From a virus (taxonomy: Duplodnaviria; Heunggongvirae; Uroviricota; Caudoviricetes): 64,000 nucleotides of DNA. Below, in pieces: positions 6,885-60,927 of the stretch; position 1 is the stretch's first letter, and each line of letters starts with the position of its first letter. The notes beneath the pieces were generated by a model. It did no database searches, had not been told where the DNA came from, and saw only the letters and a list, made by a program, of their open reading frames with translations. The position numbers were made by a program, and so were the translations under genes. The stretch lies in IMG/VR virus record IMGVR_UViG_3300032070_000730; one strand, written 5' to 3'.

Positions 6885-7208
6885 TCAAACTCTTTCAAAT
6901 TTCAAACGATAATCAGTTATTGATGTAGAACCATATTTCTTGATGAAAAAATCTTTAATAGTTTCCCATTTTTTAAATCCTTCTAAATGTGCTTCTGTTT
7001 CTGTATTTGCTACTCCCTGACCAAAATACAGTTCTTTTCTACAATCTAATATTTTAATATGACCAATTGCTTTCGATGTTCTTTTTGGTTGTATTGCCCT
7101 TATCGAACCTATGGATTGTGGTTTTAATCTTCTTGTTACTGTCTTTTTTCCATCTAATACAAGTTTCCATAAAGGTTCTCCATCTTCATTGATTGCTGAA
7201 AATATCAT
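6885..7208 (-). CDS. ASCH (PUA-like) domain protein
   Basis: 107 aa; LVLDGKKTVTRRLKP matches the ASCH GKKT-E/R core. Confidence 0.45.
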   Translation of the reverse strand: MIFSAINEDGEPLWKLVLDGKKTVTRRLKPQSIGSIRAIQPKRTSKAIGHIKILDCRKELYFGQGVANTETEAHLEGFKKWETIKDFFIKKYGSTSITDYRLKFERV

Positions 7209-7759
7209 AATCTTTTCACTTCCTTTTTATTTCCTGTGGTCTCGTATATTTTTTTATCTGATATGGGAATCGTCTGGTCTTTTAACCATGATTTAACAAT
7301 TTCCCGTTCCTCTGGTTTAATATATTTCCCAAGCAATGTTTTCAATATCCCCTCTTCCGTGCAAGCAATCATTTTGTCTCCTTTATATAACCCACGACCA
7401 TCTGCATGAAGAATCATTCCCCTGTTTCTTGCTTCAGTGCAGAGCCTTTTATTATGTTCTGCCGAACCAGTCCTAATCAATCTCAAGACTTCAAAGTTAC
7501 CTTCATTTGCGTAATATATATCGATTTGAACATTTTTGTAGATTAACTGGGTCATTTTAACCCCGCTTCTCAAAATATTCGCTCCAGTCAACGAATGCAA
7601 TGAATTATAGAAAGATATTTTTGGTATCACTACAAAATCCAAGTCATTTACAATCGGTCTCTTCCTTCTTATAGAGCCAACAACCTCGACTTTGAACGCA
7701 TTCTTCAAAAAGAAAAATTTCAGTTCTTGAGCCATAACATTAGCCTCTTCAAACGGCAT
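7205..7759 (-). CDS. Pol-beta-superfamily nucleotidyltransferase
   Basis: GSIRRKRPIVNDLDFVV matches the minimal NTase GS-x9-13-DhD motif. Confidence 0.5.
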   Translation of the reverse strand: MPFEEANVMAQELKFFFLKNAFKVEVVGSIRRKRPIVNDLDFVVIPKISFYNSLHSLTGANILRSGVKMTQLIYKNVQIDIYYANEGNFEVLRLIRTGSAEHNKRLCTEARNRGMILHADGRGLYKGDKMIACTEEGILKTLLGKYIKPEEREIVKSWLKDQTIPISDKKIYETTGNKKEVKRL

Positions 7760-11310: not shown

Positions 11311-12534
11311 ATGAGAAAAGTCATAAAATTACAAAGTTTAGAATTGACAAACAAAAAGAAGGAAGAATTAGAATCAGCAAGAATTGAAGCCAAAAGAATC
11401 ATTGAAAAATATATTTTGCAGATTCTTGATAAATGTGAAAATAATTCAGAATTGCAACAAAAAATATATCATAAGATAAGGAAAGATTCTTTTCTTCCAA
11501 GCCAAGTCTTGTTGAATTTAATTAGGTCTTCATTCCACTTAAAACAAAAACCAAAAGATAAAAGGACAATAGAAAGGATAACACTCGATTACAACATCCC
11601 AAGAGCATCCAAACTTTTCACTTTACCTAATGGAACTTTATGTTTTGCAATTACTATAAAACCAAGACATAGGATAGTTGTTCCAATAGAAATGAATGGG
11701 TCTATTGAAAGATTTAGAAAACACATCAAAAATGGTTGGATTCTAAAACAAGTTTCACTTACAAATGATAATCAAGTTCTATTGAATCTCGAAAAGAAAA
11801 AAGACCCAAAAAATTATAAAAACCATTTGGGAATAGATGTGAACTCAAATAACATATCATTGACAATCCTCGCACCAAAAGGAAAAATACTAAAACAATT
11901 ATATCTTGGTAAAAACCTCTACAAAAAGAAAGCAAAAATATTAAAGAGGTGGTCAAAATTACAGAGTTATGCAGACAAAGGAGACCCAAAGGCAAGAGAA
12001 AAGTTGAGAAAATTAAATCATAAAGTTAGTAACATGACTAAAAATGCAGTTGGTGAATTGTCTAAAGAAATACACAATATCGCAGAAGAATATGAATCGA
12101 TGATTGTCATGGAGAGATTGACAAAATTCCCTACCAACAAAGGCAAGAAGGCAAATAGAAAAATCAGTCTAATACCTTTTATGTTATTGCGACAGAGGGT
12201 CATAGTTAGAAGTGTTGATACAGGAGTTCCTCTTGGTTATGTTCATCCTTATCATACGAGTAAATGGTGTCCGAGATGTGGTTCGGTGAACCCACCTCAT
12301 GATAAAAAGAATTATGCCATTTACCGATGTAGTGAATGTGGATTGGAATGCAATAGCGATAGAAAAGCAAGTCTCACTATTGCTCTTAAAAAGTTTGTAG
12401 GGCGAGACCAGAAATGGTTTCAGTATCCTACAAAAAGAGTGTCAGTAAATGCTCTCTTTTGGGGAAATGATGATAAATATAGTAAAGGAACAGAAAATCC
12501 TATATATTTATCAGACCCAAAGGTTGTTCTGTGA
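11311..12534 (+). CDS. tnpB: TnpB (OrfB) RuvC-like RNA-guided endonuclease
   Basis: 407 aa; RuvC-I GIDVNSNN, RuvC-II VMERLT, zinc finger CPRCG...CSECG, RuvC-III ECNSDRKASLTIALK. Confidence 0.75.
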   Translation: MRKVIKLQSLELTNKKKEELESARIEAKRIIEKYILQILDKCENNSELQQKIYHKIRKDSFLPSQVLLNLIRSSFHLKQKPKDKRTIERITLDYNIPRASKLFTLPNGTLCFAITIKPRHRIVVPIEMNGSIERFRKHIKNGWILKQVSLTNDNQVLLNLEKKKDPKNYKNHLGIDVNSNNISLTILAPKGKILKQLYLGKNLYKKKAKILKRWSKLQSYADKGDPKAREKLRKLNHKVSNMTKNAVGELSKEIHNIAEEYESMIVMERLTKFPTNKGKKANRKISLIPFMLLRQRVIVRSVDTGVPLGYVHPYHTSKWCPRCGSVNPPHDKKNYAIYRCSECGLECNSDRKASLTIALKKFVGRDQKWFQYPTKRVSVNALFWGNDDKYSKGTENPIYLSDPKVVL

Positions 12535-14475: not shown

Positions 14476-17400
14476 ATGCCAGCAGAACTTCTTCCAGTCG
14501 ATGAGTTTGGGACTTTTCTTCGTGATTACTACAGCCTGAACAAGCCGAGACAAAATTTTTGTTGGGACATGAATGAAGAAATACAGACAGCATTTTTACG
14601 GGGAACAAAAAGAATCACTGTCGATTTCAGAGCGATGGAACAATTTGATGAGAAAAATGATACTAACCTTGTCAAGAGTATATTGTCATTGAGTGGTAAT
14701 GAATTAGAGGCATTTATAAAAAAATTAGAGGAAGAACTGAATAATATAGACAGAGTTATGATATTAAGGGAAGGAGAAGAAAAAGAAAATTTAAAAATTG
14801 GTCTAAAAAACCTTCCGATGACCTTGAGAATCAGCGACATACTTGCAGAGAAGCATCAGGGAAAATTGATACAGGTTGAAGGAATAATCCAGAATATAGG
14901 GATACCATTCAGATTCGCAAGAAAAAAAGTCTTTATATGCGACAGATGCACTTACGAATTAAGAAAAATATTTGACATCAATGAGAGAAAGATTCCAGAA
15001 AAGATGTGGTGTCCTTCATGCAGTGCTGAAAGAACTTTTACAGAAAACAAAAGTCAGGAAATCGTTCTCATCACGCAGTTGTTAACACTCGCTGAAGGTG
15101 TTGCCATGTCGAGTTCTATCCCGATTTCTTTAATGGTAGTTCTGTTCGAGGATTTGATTGATAACCCAGACCCAGACAGACGAAAGTTCATCGCTGGAGC
15201 AAAATTAAGAGTCGCAGGGATGTTAAAAGAGATGAAGACCAATTCTCCCGTAAAAAAATTATATCTTGAAGTCCTTCACTGGGATGTAGAAGCAGAAGAC
15301 ATAAAATTCGCTGATTCCGATATTGAGGAATTCAAAAAAATGTCTACAGACAGTGGGTTGATTGATAAATTAATCGCAAGTTTCTCACCCAGCGTGTATG
15401 GATACGAGGATGTAAAACTCGGTATGATACTACAGATAGTTGGCGGAATCACTAAATATTCCGTGAAAGACAAGAAAATGAATCGTGGGACTATCCATAT
15501 ACTGTTAATTGGAGAACCCTCGACCTCGAAATCGACATTATCCTTATTCAATTATAATTATGTCCCGAAGACAAAACTCGCTGTGTGCAGTGAGTTGAGT
15601 TTAGAATATAACGAACCGATTATATTTTCAGAAGATGGTTTAATAAAAATAATGAAAATAGGTGAATTTGTAGAAAACTATTCCAAAAAAAATATAAAAA
15701 TTCCATCTATAAATCCGCACACTTTTAAGAGTGAATGGAAATCTCTAAAAGGGGTTTTTAAACATAAAGATAACAGAGATTTAGTAAAAATACTTCTTGA
15801 AACTGGAAGAAATATAACAATAACACAAGACCATAGCATTTATGTTGCAGATGGGGATGGAATACATACAAAAAAAGGAAATGAAATAGAAAAAGGAGAT
15901 TTTGTAATTATACCAAAAAAAATAGTCGTGCCCCATAAAAAACATAAAAAAGAAATAAATTTGGTCGAGGAACTATTAAAATTGCCGACAGAAAAAATAA
16001 AAGACATCTATCTTCATGGGATTCCAAGAAAAATTCTTAAAAAAATTGGCAGAACATATCAAACTCATCTTGAAAGAGGTTATTTGCCTTTGCTTGAGGC
16101 AAGAAAACTACCAAAAAACATTTTAAGAAAAGCAACAATTTCAACAAAACACATTCCAACATTTATTCCAATTGATGAAAGATTAACGACACTTCTCGGT
16201 TATTATGTTGCCGAAGGATACAATCGTGAAGAAAAAAATCATTATTATAAAATAGAATTTTGTTTTGGAAACAAGGATTCAGAATTGATAAAAAAAACCC
16301 AACAAATTGTAAAGAATCTTTTTAATTTAGAATGCAGAAAACAAAGGGTCTATCAATTGTCAGTCAATGATAAAATCATTACCTATTTTTTCAAGTATAT
16401 CCTTAAAGTAAAACAATATGCAAAAAACAAAGAAATACCAGAAATTATTTTCAATTCACCACTAAAATCACAACTTGCCTTTCTTCAGGCATATATGCAG
16501 GGGGATTATGGTATTTCTGCAAGCAAAAAATTGATTTCAGACATACAATATCTCGCTCTTTTAATGGGAAAAGTCATAACTTCGTATGATACAAAAACAA
16601 AACCTGCTTTAATAAGGGGAAGAAAAATAAATTCGCAAAAAATACATTTTCATATATCACGAGTTCCTTGTCAGGATTTGTTTCAGAAAAAATTAAACGG
16701 ATTGAAAAAAATCAAAAAAATCCCAGATAAACTTTTGCCATTTATATTCGGGAAAACATTTGGATATGAGAATAGAAATATGAGGACTAATTCTAAAAGT
16801 TTGAAAAACAGGGCATTACAAAATGGATTTAATATGACCAAAAAAGAAATGAATTTCTTCAAAAAACTGGAACAATCTGATATTGGCTTTGTTAAAGTTA
16901 GAAAAACAGAAAAAATATTTCATAAAGATAAGTTTGTTTATGATATTTCTGTTGATGATAATGAAAATTTCATTGGGGGGTATGGTGGAATCCTATGTCA
17001 TAACACTGGGGCTGGGCTCGGCGTTGCTATGCTGAAAGACAAAGAAACAGAAAGTTGGTATCTATCTGCTGGAATTCTTCCTTTGAGTCACAAAGGATTG
17101 TGCATTCTTGATGAAATCGATAAAGCAAATCCAGAGGATATAAAATCTTTGGATATTGTCATGAGTTTACAGAAACTTCCTGTCTCAAAGGCAGGAATAA
17201 ACATCACACTTCCTGCTGAAGCGTCTGTCCTCGCTATAGCAAACCCCAAAGGTGCAAGATGGGACGCTTACCGAGACCTAAAAGACCAAGTAAATCTCTC
17301 CGAAGTGACGCTTTCCAGATTTGACTTGAAATTCTGCTTCAAAGACATTCCAAACGAAGAGAAAGACAAAATGATTGCAGAAAGAATCATAGATTCTGAT

Positions 17401-17958
17401 AATGTCGAGACACCTTTCACTTCCGAGTTTCTTGTAAAATATTTAATGTATGCCAAGACCATGAAACCAAAATTAACCGAAGCGACCACGAAAAAACTGA
17501 CAGATTTTTATATGGAGATGAGACAAAAAACCAAAGAGCAATCAGGAATCATGGTCATAACACCGAGACAGTTCGAGGGTATGATTAGAACATCGGAAGC
17601 ATTTGCAAAGTTAAGACTGGCTGAAGAGACAAATGAGTTGGATGCAGATAATTCTATAAAATGTTTCAAGGGGTTTTTGCGTTCATTTGGTTTTGATTAT
17701 GATACAGGTCAACTCGATATTGACAAAGCAGAAGGAAGGACATCTGGTCAGACAAGAAAAGACACGAGAGAAATGACAGAAATATTCGAAGATTTAAGGA
17801 GCATGTTCGGTGAAAGAGTCCCATTGTCAGATTTTACAGAGGCGTGCGAAAAAGAGGGAATACAAAGGGCAGGCGAAAAAATAAAACAAGCCATAAGAGA
17901 AGGATTGTTTTATCAAAAAGTCGGAGAAGAAGAAGATAAATTTATTAGAAAAGTATAA
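14476..17958 (+). CDS. mcm: MCM replicative helicase with inserted intein
   Basis: N-terminal C4 Zn finger CDRC...CPSC; Walker A GEPSTSKS; Walker B CILDEIDK; sensor-1 AIANP; Arg finger SRFDL. Length 1160 aa is explained by an intein in the P-loop region. Confidence 0.85.
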   Translation: MPAELLPVDEFGTFLRDYYSLNKPRQNFCWDMNEEIQTAFLRGTKRITVDFRAMEQFDEKNDTNLVKSILSLSGNELEAFIKKLEEELNNIDRVMILREGEEKENLKIGLKNLPMTLRISDILAEKHQGKLIQVEGIIQNIGIPFRFARKKVFICDRCTYELRKIFDINERKIPEKMWCPSCSAERTFTENKSQEIVLITQLLTLAEGVAMSSSIPISLMVVLFEDLIDNPDPDRRKFIAGAKLRVAGMLKEMKTNSPVKKLYLEVLHWDVEAEDIKFADSDIEEFKKMSTDSGLIDKLIASFSPSVYGYEDVKLGMILQIVGGITKYSVKDKKMNRGTIHILLIGEPSTSKSTLSLFNYNYVPKTKLAVCSELSLEYNEPIIFSEDGLIKIMKIGEFVENYSKKNIKIPSINPHTFKSEWKSLKGVFKHKDNRDLVKILLETGRNITITQDHSIYVADGDGIHTKKGNEIEKGDFVIIPKKIVVPHKKHKKEINLVEELLKLPTEKIKDIYLHGIPRKILKKIGRTYQTHLERGYLPLLEARKLPKNILRKATISTKHIPTFIPIDERLTTLLGYYVAEGYNREEKNHYYKIEFCFGNKDSELIKKTQQIVKNLFNLECRKQRVYQLSVNDKIITYFFKYILKVKQYAKNKEIPEIIFNSPLKSQLAFLQAYMQGDYGISASKKLISDIQYLALLMGKVITSYDTKTKPALIRGRKINSQKIHFHISRVPCQDLFQKKLNGLKKIKKIPDKLLPFIFGKTFGYENRNMRTNSKSLKNRALQNGFNMTKKEMNFFKKLEQSDIGFVKVRKTEKIFHKDKFVYDISVDDNENFIGGYGGILCHNTGAGLGVAMLKDKETESWYLSAGILPLSHKGLCILDEIDKANPEDIKSLDIVMSLQKLPVSKAGINITLPAEASVLAIANPKGARWDAYRDLKDQVNLSEVTLSRFDLKFCFKDIPNEEKDKMIAERIIDSDNVETPFTSEFLVKYLMYAKTMKPKLTEATTKKLTDFYMEMRQKTKEQSGIMVITPRQFEGMIRTSEAFAKLRLAEETNELDADNSIKCFKGFLRSFGFDYDTGQLDIDKAEGRTSGQTRKDTREMTEIFEDLRSMFGERVPLSDFTEACEKEGIQRAGEKIKQAIREGLFYQKVGEEEDKFIRKV
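15586..17004 (+). other. intein (473 aa) with LAGLIDADG homing endonuclease domain inside MCM
   Basis: Begins at the Cys after KTKLAV. LAGLIDADG blocks LLGYYVAEGY and FLQAYMQGDYGIS. Ends ILCHN followed by Thr (+1), then the extein resumes GAGLGVAM. Confidence 0.7.
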
Positions 17959-47290: not shown

Positions 47291-48637
47291 GTGCAAAGAC
47301 ATTGTGATTTTTTAGCGATGGCTACTGCTGTCACTCGTGAAGCGGGTCATCAGGTATATCTGTTAGATGCACAAGCGAAGAATCTGCCATATCAAAAAAC
47401 AATGGAAATGCTTGAATTTTTCCAACCAGAAATAGTGGTAATCTGGTGCACAACTCCAACGATTTACAATGACATAGCATTTGCAAACATGGTAAAAATA
47501 AAAGATAAAGGATGCATGACGGTTCTTGTCGGTGCACATCCTTCATCGCTTCCAGAAGAGACGCTGAAGATTTCTGATAAGATTGATGCTGTTGCGGTCA
47601 ATGAATTTGATTATACAATCAGAGATTTGGCTAACGGAACTCCTATGGAGAATTGTATTGGTCTTGTTTATAGAAAAGGGAATAAAATAATCAGGAATAA
47701 ACCGAGACCGTTCATTGAAGATTTGAATTCACTTCCATTTCCTGCATGGGAATTTTTAGATGTTTTTGATTATTCTGATGCAGGAAAATTATATCCATTC
47801 ATAACACAGATTGGAAGTAGAGGTTGTCCAAACATCTGCACGTTCTGTCATAATCGTTATACAATCTCTGGCGGAACATTCAGAAAACAATCACCGCAGA
47901 GAAGACTTGACGAGATACAGCATGATTTTGAATTGTTTCCAATGCTAAAAGAAATAATGATTGAGGATGATACTTTAGTTTCAAAAGAAAACGAGCGGGA
48001 TGCATTAGATTTTTGTTGGGAAATAATAAACAGGGGAATGGATTTTACTTGGAGTGCTAATGCAAGACCGAACATCACAAACTCACTTTTGTTAAGAACC
48101 ATGAAAAAATGCGGGGCAAGAATGTTTTGTGTCGGTTATGAAAGTGGTTCTCAAGAAGCATTGAATGTTGTGAACAAGAGAATAACTCTTGATGAGATGA
48201 GAATGTTTTCAAAACTGACAAGGATGAATGATATAGAAGTAAACGGCTGTTTCATGATTGGTTTTCCAAACGAGACGAGGGAATCTGCCTTGCAGACGAT
48301 AGAATTTGCAAAAGAATTGAATCCAAATACGGCACAATTCTCTGTTTTAGTTCCATATCCAGCGACACATTTCTATAATTGGGCAAAACAAAATGGTTTT
48401 ATAGTAGCAAAAGATTGGACTGAATGGGTCGATAATAATTTTGAGCAGGCTACTGTGATTTCATATCCGCAACTTTCAAGGGAAGAAATGACAGAATTTG
48501 CTGACAGGGGTTTAAAGGAATTCTATTTGCGAAAAGATAAAATCATAGAATTGTTATTCAACATAAAATCTATGGCAGATATTCACAGATTCTATCATGG
48601 GATAAGAAGTTATATCAACTATTTTCTGAAAATTTAA
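47291..48637 (+). CDS. B12-binding radical SAM protein
   Basis: B12 domain AMATAVTREAGHQVYLLD...VGAHPS; radical SAM CPNICTFC; GTG start. Confidence 0.6.
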   Translation: MQRHCDFLAMATAVTREAGHQVYLLDAQAKNLPYQKTMEMLEFFQPEIVVIWCTTPTIYNDIAFANMVKIKDKGCMTVLVGAHPSSLPEETLKISDKIDAVAVNEFDYTIRDLANGTPMENCIGLVYRKGNKIIRNKPRPFIEDLNSLPFPAWEFLDVFDYSDAGKLYPFITQIGSRGCPNICTFCHNRYTISGGTFRKQSPQRRLDEIQHDFELFPMLKEIMIEDDTLVSKENERDALDFCWEIINRGMDFTWSANARPNITNSLLLRTMKKCGARMFCVGYESGSQEALNVVNKRITLDEMRMFSKLTRMNDIEVNGCFMIGFPNETRESALQTIEFAKELNPNTAQFSVLVPYPATHFYNWAKQNGFIVAKDWTEWVDNNFEQATVISYPQLSREEMTEFADRGLKEFYLRKDKIIELLFNIKSMADIHRFYHGIRSYINYFLKI

Positions 48638-52734: not shown

Positions 52735-53010
52735 ATGATGCCCTGTCCTCACTGCAAAGGGAAGACTAAAGTTTTCGATACCCGATTGAATCCTGATAAT
52801 AATGTTCGTCGAAGAAGAAGATGCATGAAATGTGGTTATAGGTTTTCGACGATTGAAGCAGAAAAATCAAAACAAGATAAAAAAACAGGGGAATGGACTG
52901 GTTCAATAAACAATGTAATGAAAGAAGGTTATCAGAGGTCTGCCAAAGAAAATTCAAAAGTAGCAGAAGAGATGGGAAAGTTGGAAGTGAAGGATGAAGA
53001 ATATGGTTGA
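52735..53010 (+). CDS. NrdR-like zinc-ribbon protein lacking the ATP-cone
   Basis: MPCPHCKGKTKVFDTRLNPDNNVRRRRRCMKCGYRFSTIE closely matches the NrdR N-terminal Zn-ribbon consensus (CP-C...V-DSR...RRRR-C--CG-RFTT-E); the rest is unrelated. Confidence 0.45.
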   Translation: MMPCPHCKGKTKVFDTRLNPDNNVRRRRRCMKCGYRFSTIEAEKSKQDKKTGEWTGSINNVMKEGYQRSAKENSKVAEEMGKLEVKDEEYG

Positions 53011-53749
53011 TTACGAACAGGAAGTCATGGAAGAAGGAAGCAAGAAACAAAAAAAGAAGAATGAAGAAATGATGCACACAGAGTCAGTAGAAGAGATAAA
53101 ACTTGAAAAAACAGACCTTCCTTGCCCGATATGCGGTAAATCATTGTATCTTACCAAAACTAAAAGAAACTTTGCTTGGAAATGTCTTGATGGTTGTAAA
53201 AATTTTGATAGTAATAAACCACAAGATATATTTTCGCATAGAAAGCGGGAACTTGAAGTTTTACCAATACTGAAAAAATTATTCAGTCAATTAATTTTCA
53301 AAGAGAACATCCCGATTGATACTGACATTCTTTCTGGTGAAATGGGTAAAGCAAAAGTCAGATATGACTGTGGTGTTTATTGGTTTGGAAGGAAGATTGC
53401 AAAATTGAAAATTTCTGTTTTACAAAATACGACAAGAGAAAATTATCTCAATGCCGAAGAGCAGTATATTCAGGGTAACAGAGAAGTTTTTAAATATCTG
53501 GCTAAAATTGGAACAATTATGGTTTTTTATTTTGTAGATGAGCCAGATGAAATGAAAAAAATTGCTATGGCTGACTGTAGAGAAATGTTGAAATTTTCAA
53601 CAATAGTCAAAGACAGATTTTTGAATGAACAATATCATTTACCGAAAGAGATAAGAAGGTTAATAATCAAAACAGATTTTCAGGATTTTAAAAATTTGCT
53701 CTTCCGAAGATTTTTTGATATAATCACGGAAGGGACATACATTGTTTGA
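52994..53749 (+). CDS. hypothetical protein with zinc ribbon
   Basis: CPICGK...CLDGC; 251 aa. Confidence 0.3.
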   Translation: MKNMVDYEQEVMEEGSKKQKKKNEEMMHTESVEEIKLEKTDLPCPICGKSLYLTKTKRNFAWKCLDGCKNFDSNKPQDIFSHRKRELEVLPILKKLFSQLIFKENIPIDTDILSGEMGKAKVRYDCGVYWFGRKIAKLKISVLQNTTRENYLNAEEQYIQGNREVFKYLAKIGTIMVFYFVDEPDEMKKIAMADCREMLKFSTIVKDRFLNEQYHLPKEIRRLIIKTDFQDFKNLLFRRFFDIITEGTYIV

Positions 53750-53856
53750 GGTGTTTGAATGAGTTATGACGATTTGGAATTCGAGAATGAAGAAGGAGAC
53801 GAAAGTTCGGGAGATGACGACGAAGAAGAAGATTCTGAAACACATGATGCAGAAGA

Positions 53857-54867
53857 GTGAAAATAATGTTAGAAGGGAAAATAGTGAATATTAGAAAAAT
53901 GGAACAAATATTAAAGGAATATTTTGAAAATGGAACAGGAACGCCAACCATAGGAATAAAACATGGTATTAATCCAACGACTATACAAAAATGGTTAGGG
54001 GGAAAACACAGAAAAAACGAAGTTAATTTTTTGATGAAAAAAAATAATTGGAGATTAAATAAAAAATTAAGAAAAAAAGTATTTTCTAATGGACATAAAA
54101 TAAGAGGTTTAAATAGACGAAAAGAGATTTTATCAGGTTTTAATAAAGAAATGGCTTATATGTTTGGTGCTATTATTGGAGATGGCTCGGTATCTGAAGA
54201 TGGTATTTCTTTTAATTTATGGGATAATAATTTTGTAAAGGAATGTTTAAAAAATGGAGAAAGGGCTTTCCATATTAAAGGTATGTTTAAAATTTCTTAT
54301 TGGAAGGGGTATAAGACAAAATATTATACATTAAATTTTTATTCGAGAAATTTGAGAGATTTTTTTAGAAAATTTAAAAAATCAACAAAATTTTGGTTAA
54401 TTCCACAACAAATTAAAAATAACACTCAACTAAAGATTAATTTTTTAAAAGGATTTTTTGATGCAGAAGGATGTGTTGTCTTTAGTTTACTAAAATATAA
54501 AAATAAAACATATAAACGATGTTATATTTCTTGTAGTTCCACAAGTTTAGGGGGTCTAAAACAAATTTCCGCTCTTCTCAATAATTTGAAAATATATCAT
54601 GGTTTTTATTCCTATAAAAATAATTATGAATACAGAATAACAATATATAGAGAATCATTAGAAAGATTTAATATTCTGATAGGATTTAGAGTTGAAAAAT
54701 TCAATTTGCGTTTAAATTCTTATTTAAAAGAGGTGATGAATAATGGGAGAACAAAAATATTTAATCCTCGACATCGAAAGGTTAATGAATTAAATTTTAA
54801 TCCGATAAACGACAGGATTAGATGCGAACACATCCCAATTAATATCAATCGGAACAATGAATCTTGA
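53857..54867 (+). CDS. free-standing double-motif LAGLIDADG homing endonuclease with N-terminal HTH
   Basis: MFGAIIGDGSVS and LKGFFDAEGCVVFS LAGLIDADG blocks. Confidence 0.7.
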   Translation: MKIMLEGKIVNIRKMEQILKEYFENGTGTPTIGIKHGINPTTIQKWLGGKHRKNEVNFLMKKNNWRLNKKLRKKVFSNGHKIRGLNRRKEILSGFNKEMAYMFGAIIGDGSVSEDGISFNLWDNNFVKECLKNGERAFHIKGMFKISYWKGYKTKYYTLNFYSRNLRDFFRKFKKSTKFWLIPQQIKNNTQLKINFLKGFFDAEGCVVFSLLKYKNKTYKRCYISCSSTSLGGLKQISALLNNLKIYHGFYSYKNNYEYRITIYRESLERFNILIGFRVEKFNLRLNSYLKEVMNNGRTKIFNPRHRKVNELNFNPINDRIRCEHIPININRNNES

Positions 54868-55333
54868 TGATGGACAAGAAACGATTTATTTTGTGAACAA
54901 CCCAAAAGAAGAAAAGGATATTATAGAGAAGTTCTTTAATCTACTGATAATAGCAGATTACAGGATTATTAGTTATTATGGGAGTTATTTTGATGTTCCA
55001 TTTATTGTTTCAAGGGCACTGACTCTTGGGGTAGATGTAAAGAAATATAGGAAGATTTTTCCATTCAGACAGATAGATGTTTATGATGTAGTGAAAAGAA
55101 ACTTGAAATTATCAAAGAATTCTCTCGGAGATGTATGCAAATTTCTTGGAATAGAAAAACGGTTCGACATACAGGGAATGGATATGCCAAATTTCTATTT
55201 GAAGGCTATCAGTGGAGATACAGAAATACGGAAAAAAATTGATGAGCATTTGAGAGAAGACCTTGCGACTTTGCGGGATGTGTGGTTGAAAATCATGCCA
55301 GTCATCGATTTAAGCAGGTGGGAAAAGGAATGA
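54743..55333 (+). pseudogene. DEDDy (PolB-type) 3'-5' exonuclease domain gene, apparently interrupted
   Basis: Exo I-like YLILDIE at 54758-54778 is in frame with, but separated by two TAA stops from, ORF 54857..55333. That ORF carries Exo II YYGSYFDVPFI and an Exo III-like Y...D helix. The 5' part lies under the 3' end of the LAGLIDADG gene. Confidence 0.4.
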
Positions 55334-60582: not shown

Positions 60583-60927
60583 TTATTCGGTTTTAACTGC
60601 CCCTCGCTCGGCAGTGCCATTTATATTATGACCATGAATATCGTAATCTTCCATTTTTTTCTTGAAACCAGTGACGAATTCCTTTCTAAAAATCATCTTG
60701 TCTATTATATTATTGATTATGATTTTGACGGTCTCTTTTTTTGTGATTATAAAAGCAATACCAGTCACGCTACCGCCAAACATCTCCTTCAATTTAGCAA
60801 GAGTATTCGGATTACTGTCAGAAACTTTTATTATAAACTGTTGATAGGTCTTGCTTCCACGCCTTGTCGTATGAATCGAAAAACACCCCCTTCCATCCAA
60901 ATAACCAGCGAGCCAATCCCAGTTCAA
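60583..60927 (-). CDS. single-motif LAGLIDADG homing endonuclease (I-CreI-like size)
   Basis: NWDWLAGYLDGRGCFSI. Confidence 0.55.
   Translation of the reverse strand: MNWDWLAGYLDGRGCFSIHTTRRGSKTYQQFIIKVSDSNPNTLAKLKEMFGGSVTGIAFIITKKETVKIIINNIIDKMIFRKEFVTGFKKKMEDYDIHGHNINGTAERGAVKTE

Follow-up and report, generated by a model that had tools for sequence, protein, structure and literature searches.

A LAGLIDADG homing-endonuclease cassette and a candidate bulge-helix-bulge mini-intron in an exonuclease gene of a putative archaeal mobile element

The stretch of DNA analyzed here (64,000 nucleotides of the IMG/VR virus record IMGVR_UViG_3300032070_000730; hereafter, the window) encodes on its + strand a LAGLIDADG homing endonuclease whose gene overlaps a 3'-5' exonuclease gene with a broken reading frame. 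We propose that the endonuclease gene belongs to a mobile cassette that has invaded the exonuclease gene, and that a 30-nucleotide (nt) insert delivered with it may be removed from the transcript as a bulge-helix-bulge (BHB) mini-intron by the tRNA-splicing machinery of the host. Directly visible at the locus are the cassette insertion, a presence/absence polymorphism among relatives, co-conversion tracts, a strict co-occurrence of endonuclease and insert, a preserved joined frame, and a predicted fold that matches the cleavage rule for BHB motifs. From sequence comparisons, the insertion and mobility of the cassette appear very probable, and the mechanism as a whole, i.e., a homing-endonuclease cassette together with a mini-intron spliced by host enzymes, seems reasonably likely. 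An initial annotation of the window had described the LAGLIDADG open reading frame (ORF), a 158-residue ORF lacking the Exo I motif, a YLILDIE-encoding segment upstream in the same frame, and TAA codons at 54791 and 54806; all of these lie where it placed them.

The interrupted exonuclease gene

The 158-residue ORF at 54857..55333 (+) matches the Pfam family RNase_H_2 (PF13482) with 58.9 bits over profile positions 28-160 only, and it also matches the Pfam families DNA_pol_B_exo2 and DNA_pol_B_exo1. Since the PF13482 match starts at profile position 28, the N-terminal Exo I part is missing from this ORF, which, as called, is a DEDDh/PolB-type exonuclease without Exo I. Upstream, ATG 54743 opens a 12-codon segment (54743..54778 (+); MGEQKYLILDIE), here termed exon 1, that carries Exo I residues D10 and E12 and sits beneath the final 41 codons of the LAGLIDADG ORF. 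It is preceded, 6 nt before the ATG, by a Shine-Dalgarno-like ribosome-binding site, GAGGTGA (54730..54736 (+)), which is kept in the other interrupted lineages (L008, L011, and L012; handles beginning with L denote related sequences). In frame with ATG 54743, the DNA reads DIE, RLMN, stop (TAA 54791), ILIR, stop (TAA 54806), and TTGLD. The last of these is the second half of the Exo I motif DIETTGLD and directly abuts TAA 54806, and TTGLDANTSQLISIGTM runs from this second TAA to 54857 in the exonuclease frame.

The two parts had been described in the initial annotation as separated by 114 nt and two in-frame TAA codons. The stop codons stand, but the real interruption is a precise 30-nt block rather than 114 nt of unrelated sequence. 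Specifically, the insert AGGTTAATGAATTAAATTTTAATCCGATAA (54779..54808 (+)), which is the candidate BHB mini-intron, holds both TAA codons, and deletion of exactly 54779..54808 recreates DIETTGLD and a full-length exonuclease of 186 residues. Exon 2 (54809..55333 (+), stop TGA 55331-33) starts TTGLDANTSQLISIG and contributes Exo II (YYGSYFDVPF) and Exo III (H159-x3-D163).

Once both parts are joined, the PF13482 score increases from 58.9 to 82.6 bits, the match covers profile positions 1-160, and the joined N-terminus matches DEDDh/DnaQ structures over the junction. Only the joined chain holds the full set of Exo I D-x-E, Exo II D, and Exo III H-x(n)-D (D10, E12, D74, H159, and D163), of which D10 and E12 are required by DEDD nucleases for two-metal catalysis. 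An AlphaFold model of the joined protein (predicted local distance difference test, pLDDT, 90.2; predicted template-modeling score, pTM, 0.87) places the junction within strand beta-1, and Foldseek matched this model to family-B polymerase exonuclease domains with template-modeling (TM) scores of 0.73-0.80, as well as to PolC/DnaQ; an RNase H-like exonuclease fold is thereby predicted for the joined product. The target gene reads most naturally as a DEDDh (PolB/DnaQ-like, YprB-type) 3'-5' exonuclease gene.

With the insert removed, complete ORFs of 179-186 residues result in 4/4 interrupted lineages, each with D-x-E, Exo II, and H-x3-D. The ratio of nonsynonymous to synonymous divergence (dN/dS) between lineages is 0.13-0.26, with dS saturated. 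A simple pseudogene, one of the readings put forward earlier, is unlikely because four diverged lineages have all retained the start codon, D-x-E, and the entire downstream ORF. Another was a restart at Met 54857, by which a protein of 158 residues without Exo I would serve a non-catalytic or altered role and the upstream 16-codon ORF would be irrelevant. An ATG does stand at 54857, and gene finders call the ORF; however, a Met is lacking at the corresponding position of L008, L011, and L012, for which the called starts also vary, the four lineages share no downstream start that could serve instead, the two Exo I metal ligands would be gone, and the conserved exon 1 and ribosome-binding site would be left unexplained. 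Moreover, orthologues do not start at the 54857 Met, and LILDIE is conserved, contrary to what a natural start at this codon with Exo I elsewhere would entail. A truncated protein is, on these grounds, highly improbable.

The cassette, its relatives, and its mobility

The LAGLIDADG homing-endonuclease ORF (53866..54867 (+), 333 residues) matches Pfam LAGLIDADG_3 (PF14528) with an E-value of 1.6e-12. Its probable start is ATG 53866, as in public gene calls, and GTG 53857, from which it had previously been read, is the less likely alternative. The protein has two LAGLIDADG motifs with acidic catalytic residues (MAYMFGAIIGDG and NFLKGFFDAEG) and a weak helix-turn-helix-like region at its N-terminus; a comparison with solved LAGLIDADG structures gave no significant sequence match. 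The homologues in L008 and L012 match the LAGLIDADG profile, too. The last ~41 codons run across exon 1, the insert, and 59 nt of exon 2. In L012, the endonuclease homologue ends before the insert, at 960, and the read-through tail is therefore dispensable. Within 5.8 billion proteins, this endonuclease family comprises 4 clusters only, each upstream of an interrupted exonuclease gene, and the endonucleases of the four lineages share 51-74% amino-acid identity.

Three syntenic relatives (L004, L005, and L006) are 94-100% identical to the window beyond the exonuclease locus and encode an intact 188-residue exonuclease (MLEGKTMDLILDIESTGLDANTSQLISIG), with neither the endonuclease gene nor the 30-nt block. 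At the locus, the uninterrupted L004-type allele reads GATATAGAATCGACAGGATTAGAT, containing GATATAGAATCGACAGGATTAGATGCC. Blastn comparison of the window with these three relatives yields homology blocks that end at 53889 (L004 10024) and resume at 54807 (L004 10041), and the cassette accordingly occupies ~917 nt (53890..54806 (+)) in place of 16 nt (L004 10025..10040), with a 3' boundary that slides by 1-3 nt owing to a shared AA. Within it lie the endonuclease gene, a ribosome-binding site of its own, ATG 54743, the 12-codon exon 1, and the insert. Immediately before it, 8 codons (53866..53889 (+)) are a remnant of the recipient's exonuclease start that is now fused to the endonuclease ORF, reading MLEGKIVN vs. 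MLEGKTMD in L004 (10001..10024). The homing-endonuclease insertion at the exonuclease 5' end that had been suspected is thus supported by syntenic relatives with an uninterrupted version, for which a search of related genomes had been advised. The endonuclease is, however, not simply free-standing as first described, in that its ORF opens with the recipient's first 8 exonuclease codons and the cassette brings its own start and exon 1. The endonuclease ORF sits upstream of the insert, i.e., outside the candidate intron, and adjoins the exonuclease gene. The same cassette 3' boundary is seen in a second lineage (L008 1421 = L009 2455), and the 3' end of the inserted DNA is the 3' end of the insert in both.

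Several other arrangements were considered and rejected. An intein is excluded by the different frames of the endonuclease and exon 2 and by the lack of a Hint domain match. One large intron holding the endonuclease was discarded as well: no D-x-E is encoded upstream of the endonuclease, and Exo I is found only at 54743..54778. Finally, a group I/II intron or other known RNA was set aside on finding no Rfam family match in the window, which also holds no tRNA.

The joined protein has nine relatives in the same 5.8 billion proteins, and every full-length one reads DIE(S/T)TGLD uninterrupted. The insert occurs at the identical codon boundary in 4/4 endonuclease lineages and in 0/6 endonuclease-free lineages with readable upstream DNA. 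It is 30 nt long in the window, L001, L002, and L003, 33 nt in L008, L013, and L014, 21 nt in L011, and 32 nt in L012, and all inserts are bounded by ...GACATCGAA on the left and AC(G/A)AC... on the right. The first residues of exon 1 vary (MGIKHLILDIE in L008, MGEHLILDIE in L011, and MQLEDNTIIFLDIE in L012), and (I/L)(I/F)LDIE is kept, with different codons in L012.

Identity profiles likewise point to mobility. Cassettes are 78-85% identical between lineages, and their flanks are ~68-70% identical. The window and L002 are 100% identical over ~53650-55300, a 1.65-kb tract that includes the cassette and the exonuclease gene, and their flanks are 55-98% identical. Compared with L004, exon 2 of the window is 57-82% identical over 54807..55306 (+), and from 55307 on identity is 93-100%. 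This divergent exon 2 tract in an L004-like background is a co-conversion tract, and the pattern of identity is the signature expected of homing-endonuclease-driven gene conversion. An uninterrupted allele, P0003 (L130 26..70), has CTCGACATCGAA at its Exo I codons, the same as cassette exon 1, which probably derives from an L130-like lineage rather than from selected recoding. The idea that exon 1 was synonymously recoded for immunity is weakened by this natural occurrence in L130.

Distant relatives of the exonuclease (22-34% identity) exist in IMG/VR viral contigs; the one inspected of ten, L124, is uninterrupted, with no evident endonuclease ORF nearby. Neither the endonuclease nor the insert was found in scans of viral contigs, and a phage DNA similarity search likewise returned nothing. 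A metagenome scan with the pattern GACATCGAAA-N(8-38)-CGAKAAACRAC returned 102 hits, one of them real (L071, the same contig as L013); the matches in L061 and L076, which belong to the same sample series, arose by chance in unrelated DNA of 54% GC. A further homologue, P0006, has an uninterrupted Exo I (L007 4920..4960; VDIIVDCESSGLD) with no ATG, GTG, or TTG ahead of it. It begins just past the stop of an acidic mini-ORF, and gene callers give a truncated product of 129 residues; an unusual start, a frameshift, or decay are possible causes.

The fold around the insert and its competing explanations

The fold was computed on RNA 54740..54860, and pair probabilities were checked. The minimum-free-energy (MFE) structure is also the centroid (-21.8 kcal/mol, z = -2.2). 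Its BHB core (54773..54809 (+)) consists of a 4-bp helix, AUCG 54773-76 with CGAU 54803-06, and the bulges AAA 54777-79 and AAA 54807-09. Adjoining this core are the intron hairpin (helix B; 54780-85 with 54797-802, 11-nt loop) and an outer exon-exon helix (helix A; 54758..54824 (+), 54758-70 with 54810-24) that has a CA bulge and in which 84.6% of cells are paired over 4 variants. Pair probabilities in the core are 0.85-0.98, and the bulges are unpaired with probabilities of 0.98-1.0. BHB motifs have a 4-bp helix between 3-nt bulges and are cut after the 2nd bulge nucleotide; in pre-tRNA, the intron pairs with the first two bases of the anticodon, thereby placing the cut after this nucleotide (PMC4090602). 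Applied to the fold in the window, this rule predicts cleavage 3' of 54778 and 54808, exactly the 30 nt needed, and the same geometry yields 33, 21, and 32 nt for L008, L011, and L012, respectively. The four variants fold alike overall, and a relaxed BHB at one given position and length has a chance of ~6e-5 to 2e-4.

Covariation was examined in a register-matched alignment of 4 distinct sequences with loops swapped for GAAA. Hairpin cells are 100% paired, with both sides changed in 2/5 scored pairs and one G-U replaced by G-C, and the L012 stem (UAUAACC:GGUUAUA) has no sequence in common with the other stems. The hairpin loops, which comprise 4-16 nt past the five scored stem pairs, vary freely in sequence and length. 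As a register control, 89.8% of cells are paired in the proper alignment vs. 24-46% with partners slid.

The sequence around the insert also contains an imperfect direct repeat with a 36-nt period (54760..54781, TTTAATCC..CGAAAGG; 54796..54816, TTTAATCC..CGACAGG). In sequence, the 5' half of the insert is similar to the beginning of exon 2 and the 3' half to the final part of exon 1, a pattern that would be expected from, and hints at, birth of the mini-intron by tandem duplication of the exon junction. The repeat permits an alternative fold, which appears when flanks are short.

Under the mechanism proposed here, the endonuclease would cut endonuclease-free alleles near the conserved active-site coding sequence, and repair off the cassette-bearing genome would copy the cassette, in many cases along with the neighboring exon 2. 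In the carrier genome, the insert would split the endonuclease target. That it blocks self-cleavage is suggested because the 3' boundary of the cassette is the 3' end of the intron in two lineages; immunity of this kind, like DNA cleavage, its site, and splicing itself, is what we infer from the comparisons above. In the transcript, the insert would fold as a relaxed BHB motif, the host tRNA-splicing endonuclease would cut after 54778 and after 54808, and an RtcB-type ligase would rejoin the exons, restoring an active exonuclease of 186 residues. The predicted spliced RNA joins GACATCGAA to ACGACAGG (equally written as GACATCGAA joined to ACGACAGGATT), and the predicted joined protein would contain the junction-spanning peptide LILDIETTGLDANTSQ, also LILDIETTGLDANTSQLISIGTMNLDDGQETIYFVNNPK. 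Of the options offered in the initial annotation, a recoding event comes closest, although the evidence points to RNA splicing of a BHB mini-intron and not to a ribosomal event.

A number of observations weigh against splicing. In the window, A54771 and C54772 are unpaired and face the 3' bulge, and the motif is therefore relaxed rather than strict. The 3' site lies inside a larger internal loop in L008 and L011, and the BHB conformer of L008 has a probability of only 0.1-0.5. In L012, the central helix contains an A.G mismatch, and the MFE register would remove 30 nt vs. the required 32. The observed covariation was reached by 13/500 shuffles, a weak statistic with four independent variants only, and relaxed BHB-like folds are common in the AT-rich window (178 per strand vs. 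~125 in shuffles). An exact look-up of the four joined proteins in a collection of 15 billion proteins found them absent. Scans of reference-genome contigs with the exonuclease protein and with the window's MCM helicase as queries for a host returned nothing; a relaxed motif would predict a splicing endonuclease of the (alpha-beta)2 or epsilon-2 type. Finally, the intactness of exon 2 in each lineage might partly reflect recent invasion and not continued selection, and three of the insert lengths (21, 30, and 33 nt) are divisible by 3, a regularity not needed for splicing.

Several of these points would equally suit the main rival explanation, in which the invasion destroyed the exonuclease, the 30 nt are junk or the scar of a repair event and are never removed, and the BHB is a chance fold. 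The frequency of such folds in AT-rich DNA, the imperfect folds of L012 and L008, and the failure to find the joined protein in public collections would all be expected, and gene callers annotate just truncated products of 129-163 residues for the interrupted alleles. Likewise, the 100% identity of the window and L002 may denote a recent transfer, such that intactness may not reflect selection. Against a dead gene, however, the lineages, with endonucleases diverged to 51-74% amino-acid identity, all keep the ribosome-binding site, ATG, (I/L)(I/F)LDIE, and an insert with the same bounding nucleotides, and the splice-site flanks are identical in three lineages despite cassette identities of 78-85%, with the loop free to vary. 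Stem pairing survives double changes, and a scar falling exactly between DIE and TTGLD and fitting the cleavage rule would have a probability of ~1e-4 by chance. A gene destroyed by the invasion is, in our view, unlikely.

Translational bypass, with take-off at GAA 54776-78 and resumption at ACG 54809, would also leave a continuous product, much as in phage T4 gene 60 or the yeast mitochondrial byps, where a short untranslated gap with stop codons and a hairpin lies in a coding sequence. The gap here is short (21-33 nt), starts at a hairpin, and holds stop codons; a 32-nt gap would be tolerated, and in L012 the take-off codon GAA 983-985 has a matching landing codon, GAA 1015-1017, ahead of ACG in the right frame. 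In the window, L008, and L011, however, the landing codon is UAA and not GAA, so that matched take-off and landing codons are missing in 3/4 variants. The codon after take-off is AGG or AAA, and, unlike gene 60-type bypass, none of the four variants has a stop at this place. The two 3-nt bulges around a 4-bp helix and the exon-exon helix are conserved, although they would have no role in bypass. Bypassing is not known to have been described in archaea, although no search aimed at this point was made, and we regard it as a very unlikely explanation of this locus.

Readthrough or reassignment of the stop codons, with the 30 nt translated as a 10-residue loop, would agree with the multiple-of-3 length of three of four inserts. 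TAA is, however, the commonest ordinary stop in the window (TAA 51, TGA 41, and TAG 8 among 100 non-overlapping ORFs), and no homologue has an insertion inside the DIE-TTG active-site strand. In L012, the 32-nt insert puts the exons in different frames; readthrough is therefore impossible, and the insert must be physically skipped. Readthrough is effectively refuted by L012 and by this stop-codon usage. As for insert length, the multiples of 3 occur in lineages whose endonuclease ORF reads through the insert, and in L012, with 32 nt, the ORF ends upstream. Upkeep of the endonuclease frame in both spliced and unspliced RNA may constrain the length, which with n = 4 is only suggestive.

Related systems, genomic setting, and significance

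LAGLIDADG genes occur inside large BHB introns of archaeal rRNA genes (I-DmoI, I-PorI, and I-ApeI type). The locus described here resembles these in combining, as a mobile unit in an apparently archaeal setting, a BHB-type (candidate) intron and a two-motif LAGLIDADG endonuclease. It differs in that the ORF precedes, and is not part of, a candidate mRNA intron of 30 nt, rather than sitting inside a large rRNA intron, and in that the cassette also brings a replacement start and exon 1.

The closest parallels in size are the introns of cbf5 mRNA, which comprise 16-44 nt, are spliced via BHB motifs, and are too short for a nuclease ORF (PMC2738675). As of 2020, cbf5 was the sole BHB intron reported in an archaeal coding sequence, together with one case in a 5' untranslated region (UTR) (PMC7714728). 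Like the crenarchaeal cbf5 pre-mRNA introns (Watanabe 2002; Yokobori 2009, PMC2738675), the insert is very short, lies in a coding gene, has a BHB or relaxed motif, and would presumably be removed by the tRNA-splicing endonuclease and a ligase; the length of some cbf5 introns is likewise divisible by 3. Splicing of cbf5 has been shown experimentally, whereas here it is predicted from sequence. Moreover, cbf5 is a chromosomal housekeeping gene, vertically inherited and with no nuclease, whereas the present insert resides in an exonuclease gene of a mobile element and is physically and evolutionarily tied to a LAGLIDADG gene, with which it moves. The 5' UTR case, HVO_1309 of Haloferax volcanii, has a BHB intron of 46 nt (Schwarz 2020, PMC7714728). 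It is likewise an mRNA substrate of the archaeal splicing endonuclease (predicted here) with an intron of comparable size, but it is chromosomal, lies in a UTR, and has no nuclease partner, whereas the insert described here lies in a coding region and is accompanied by an endonuclease.

In collaborative homing, as described for F-CphI and a group I intron of cyanophage psbA, the intron interrupts the endonuclease target, prevents self-cleavage, and gains mobility (Zeng, Bonocora & Shub 2009; PMC6083498). Here, too, a separately encoded endonuclease gene adjoins a gene bearing a (candidate) intron, with a co-occurrence of 4/4 vs. 0/6. Unlike F-CphI/psbA, where the intron is a self-splicing group I ribozyme, the host element a bacteriophage, and the nuclease of the Endo VII type, the present system would pair a protein-spliced BHB intron with a LAGLIDADG enzyme on an archaeal element, and its target site and immunity are predictions. 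By these analogies, the locus resembles both collaborative homing and cbf5 splicing, and appears to be a member of neither described system. A literature search found no report of a BHB intron combined with a free-standing endonuclease in a coding gene. Whether the insert is the first known example of a BHB intron in a protein-coding gene of an archaeal virus or mobile element, forming a selfish unit of two parts with a free-standing LAGLIDADG endonuclease, i.e., an archaeal, protein-spliced form of collaborative homing in which the intron shields the carrier and keeps the gene functional, is on present sequence evidence evenly balanced.

The window has ~33% GC and belongs to a public contig of ~105 kb. 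Its archaeal gene content comprises an MCM with an intein, PCNA, an archaeal histone, Hjc, and an S-layer-type protein, and it also encodes an Orc1-like AAA protein, an XPB-type helicase, glycosyltransferases, radical-SAM enzymes, and a TnpB-like protein. The closest MCMs in annotated collections are all from archaeal viruses or plasmids, at <=37% identity, and a PHROGs search of the 10 neighboring ORFs found no viral hallmark gene. Judged by its gene content, this DNA appears to be an archaeal mobile element or virus.

Other mobile or variable segments are found in the window. The MCM helicase gene (14476..17958 (+)) contains an intein (82 bits to Intein_splicing) that also matches LAGLIDADG_3 weakly and is a second endonuclease-type mobile element in the window. 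The B12-binding radical-SAM gene (47291..48637 (+), 448 residues) has no intein, whereas its orthologue in L004/L005 (L004 2211..4790, 859 residues) has intein and LAGLIDADG matches and, by blastn, a 1271-nt insertion; the window and its L004-type relatives thus each hold a mobile element that the other is without. A 114-residue, single-motif LAGLIDADG_1 ORF (60583..60927 (-)) lies between unannotated genes and is present in L004 and L005. To the left of the cassette, a hypervariable segment (53090..53590) within ORF 52994..53749 shares 46-80% identity with L004 and 55-82% with L002, compared with 90-100% for the adjoining DNA, and may be either a segment of the protein that diversifies or a conversion tract of earlier date. 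A TnpB/IS605 OrfB-like protein (Cas12f1-like TNB and OrfB_IS605 domains) is encoded at 11311..12534 (+), ahead of the Orc1-like and MCM genes. Finally, 7205..7759 (-) encodes a small protein with a DNA polymerase beta (family X) thumb domain, and a similar gene (L127 2420..2881) stands two genes downstream of the exonuclease homologue in L127; this arrangement hints that the stand-alone exonuclease may be functionally linked to a PolX-like enzyme.

If the proposed mechanism is correct, this BHB intron would reside on a mobile element and travel together with a homing endonuclease encoded outside it, thereby linking the fields of BHB introns and homing endonucleases in a coding gene and paralleling the pathway proposed for the formation of mobile group I introns. 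Should such introns indeed originate by tandem duplication of a hairpin-forming exon junction, the locus would illustrate concretely how archaeal mRNA introns can be born and spread. An element of 21-33 nt that host enzymes remove, but that makes a gene immune to a nuclease, would also be a potentially useful tool. Finally, short BHB introns in the coding genes of archaea and archaeal viruses may be systematically overlooked, since gene callers truncate all four of the interrupted alleles described here.

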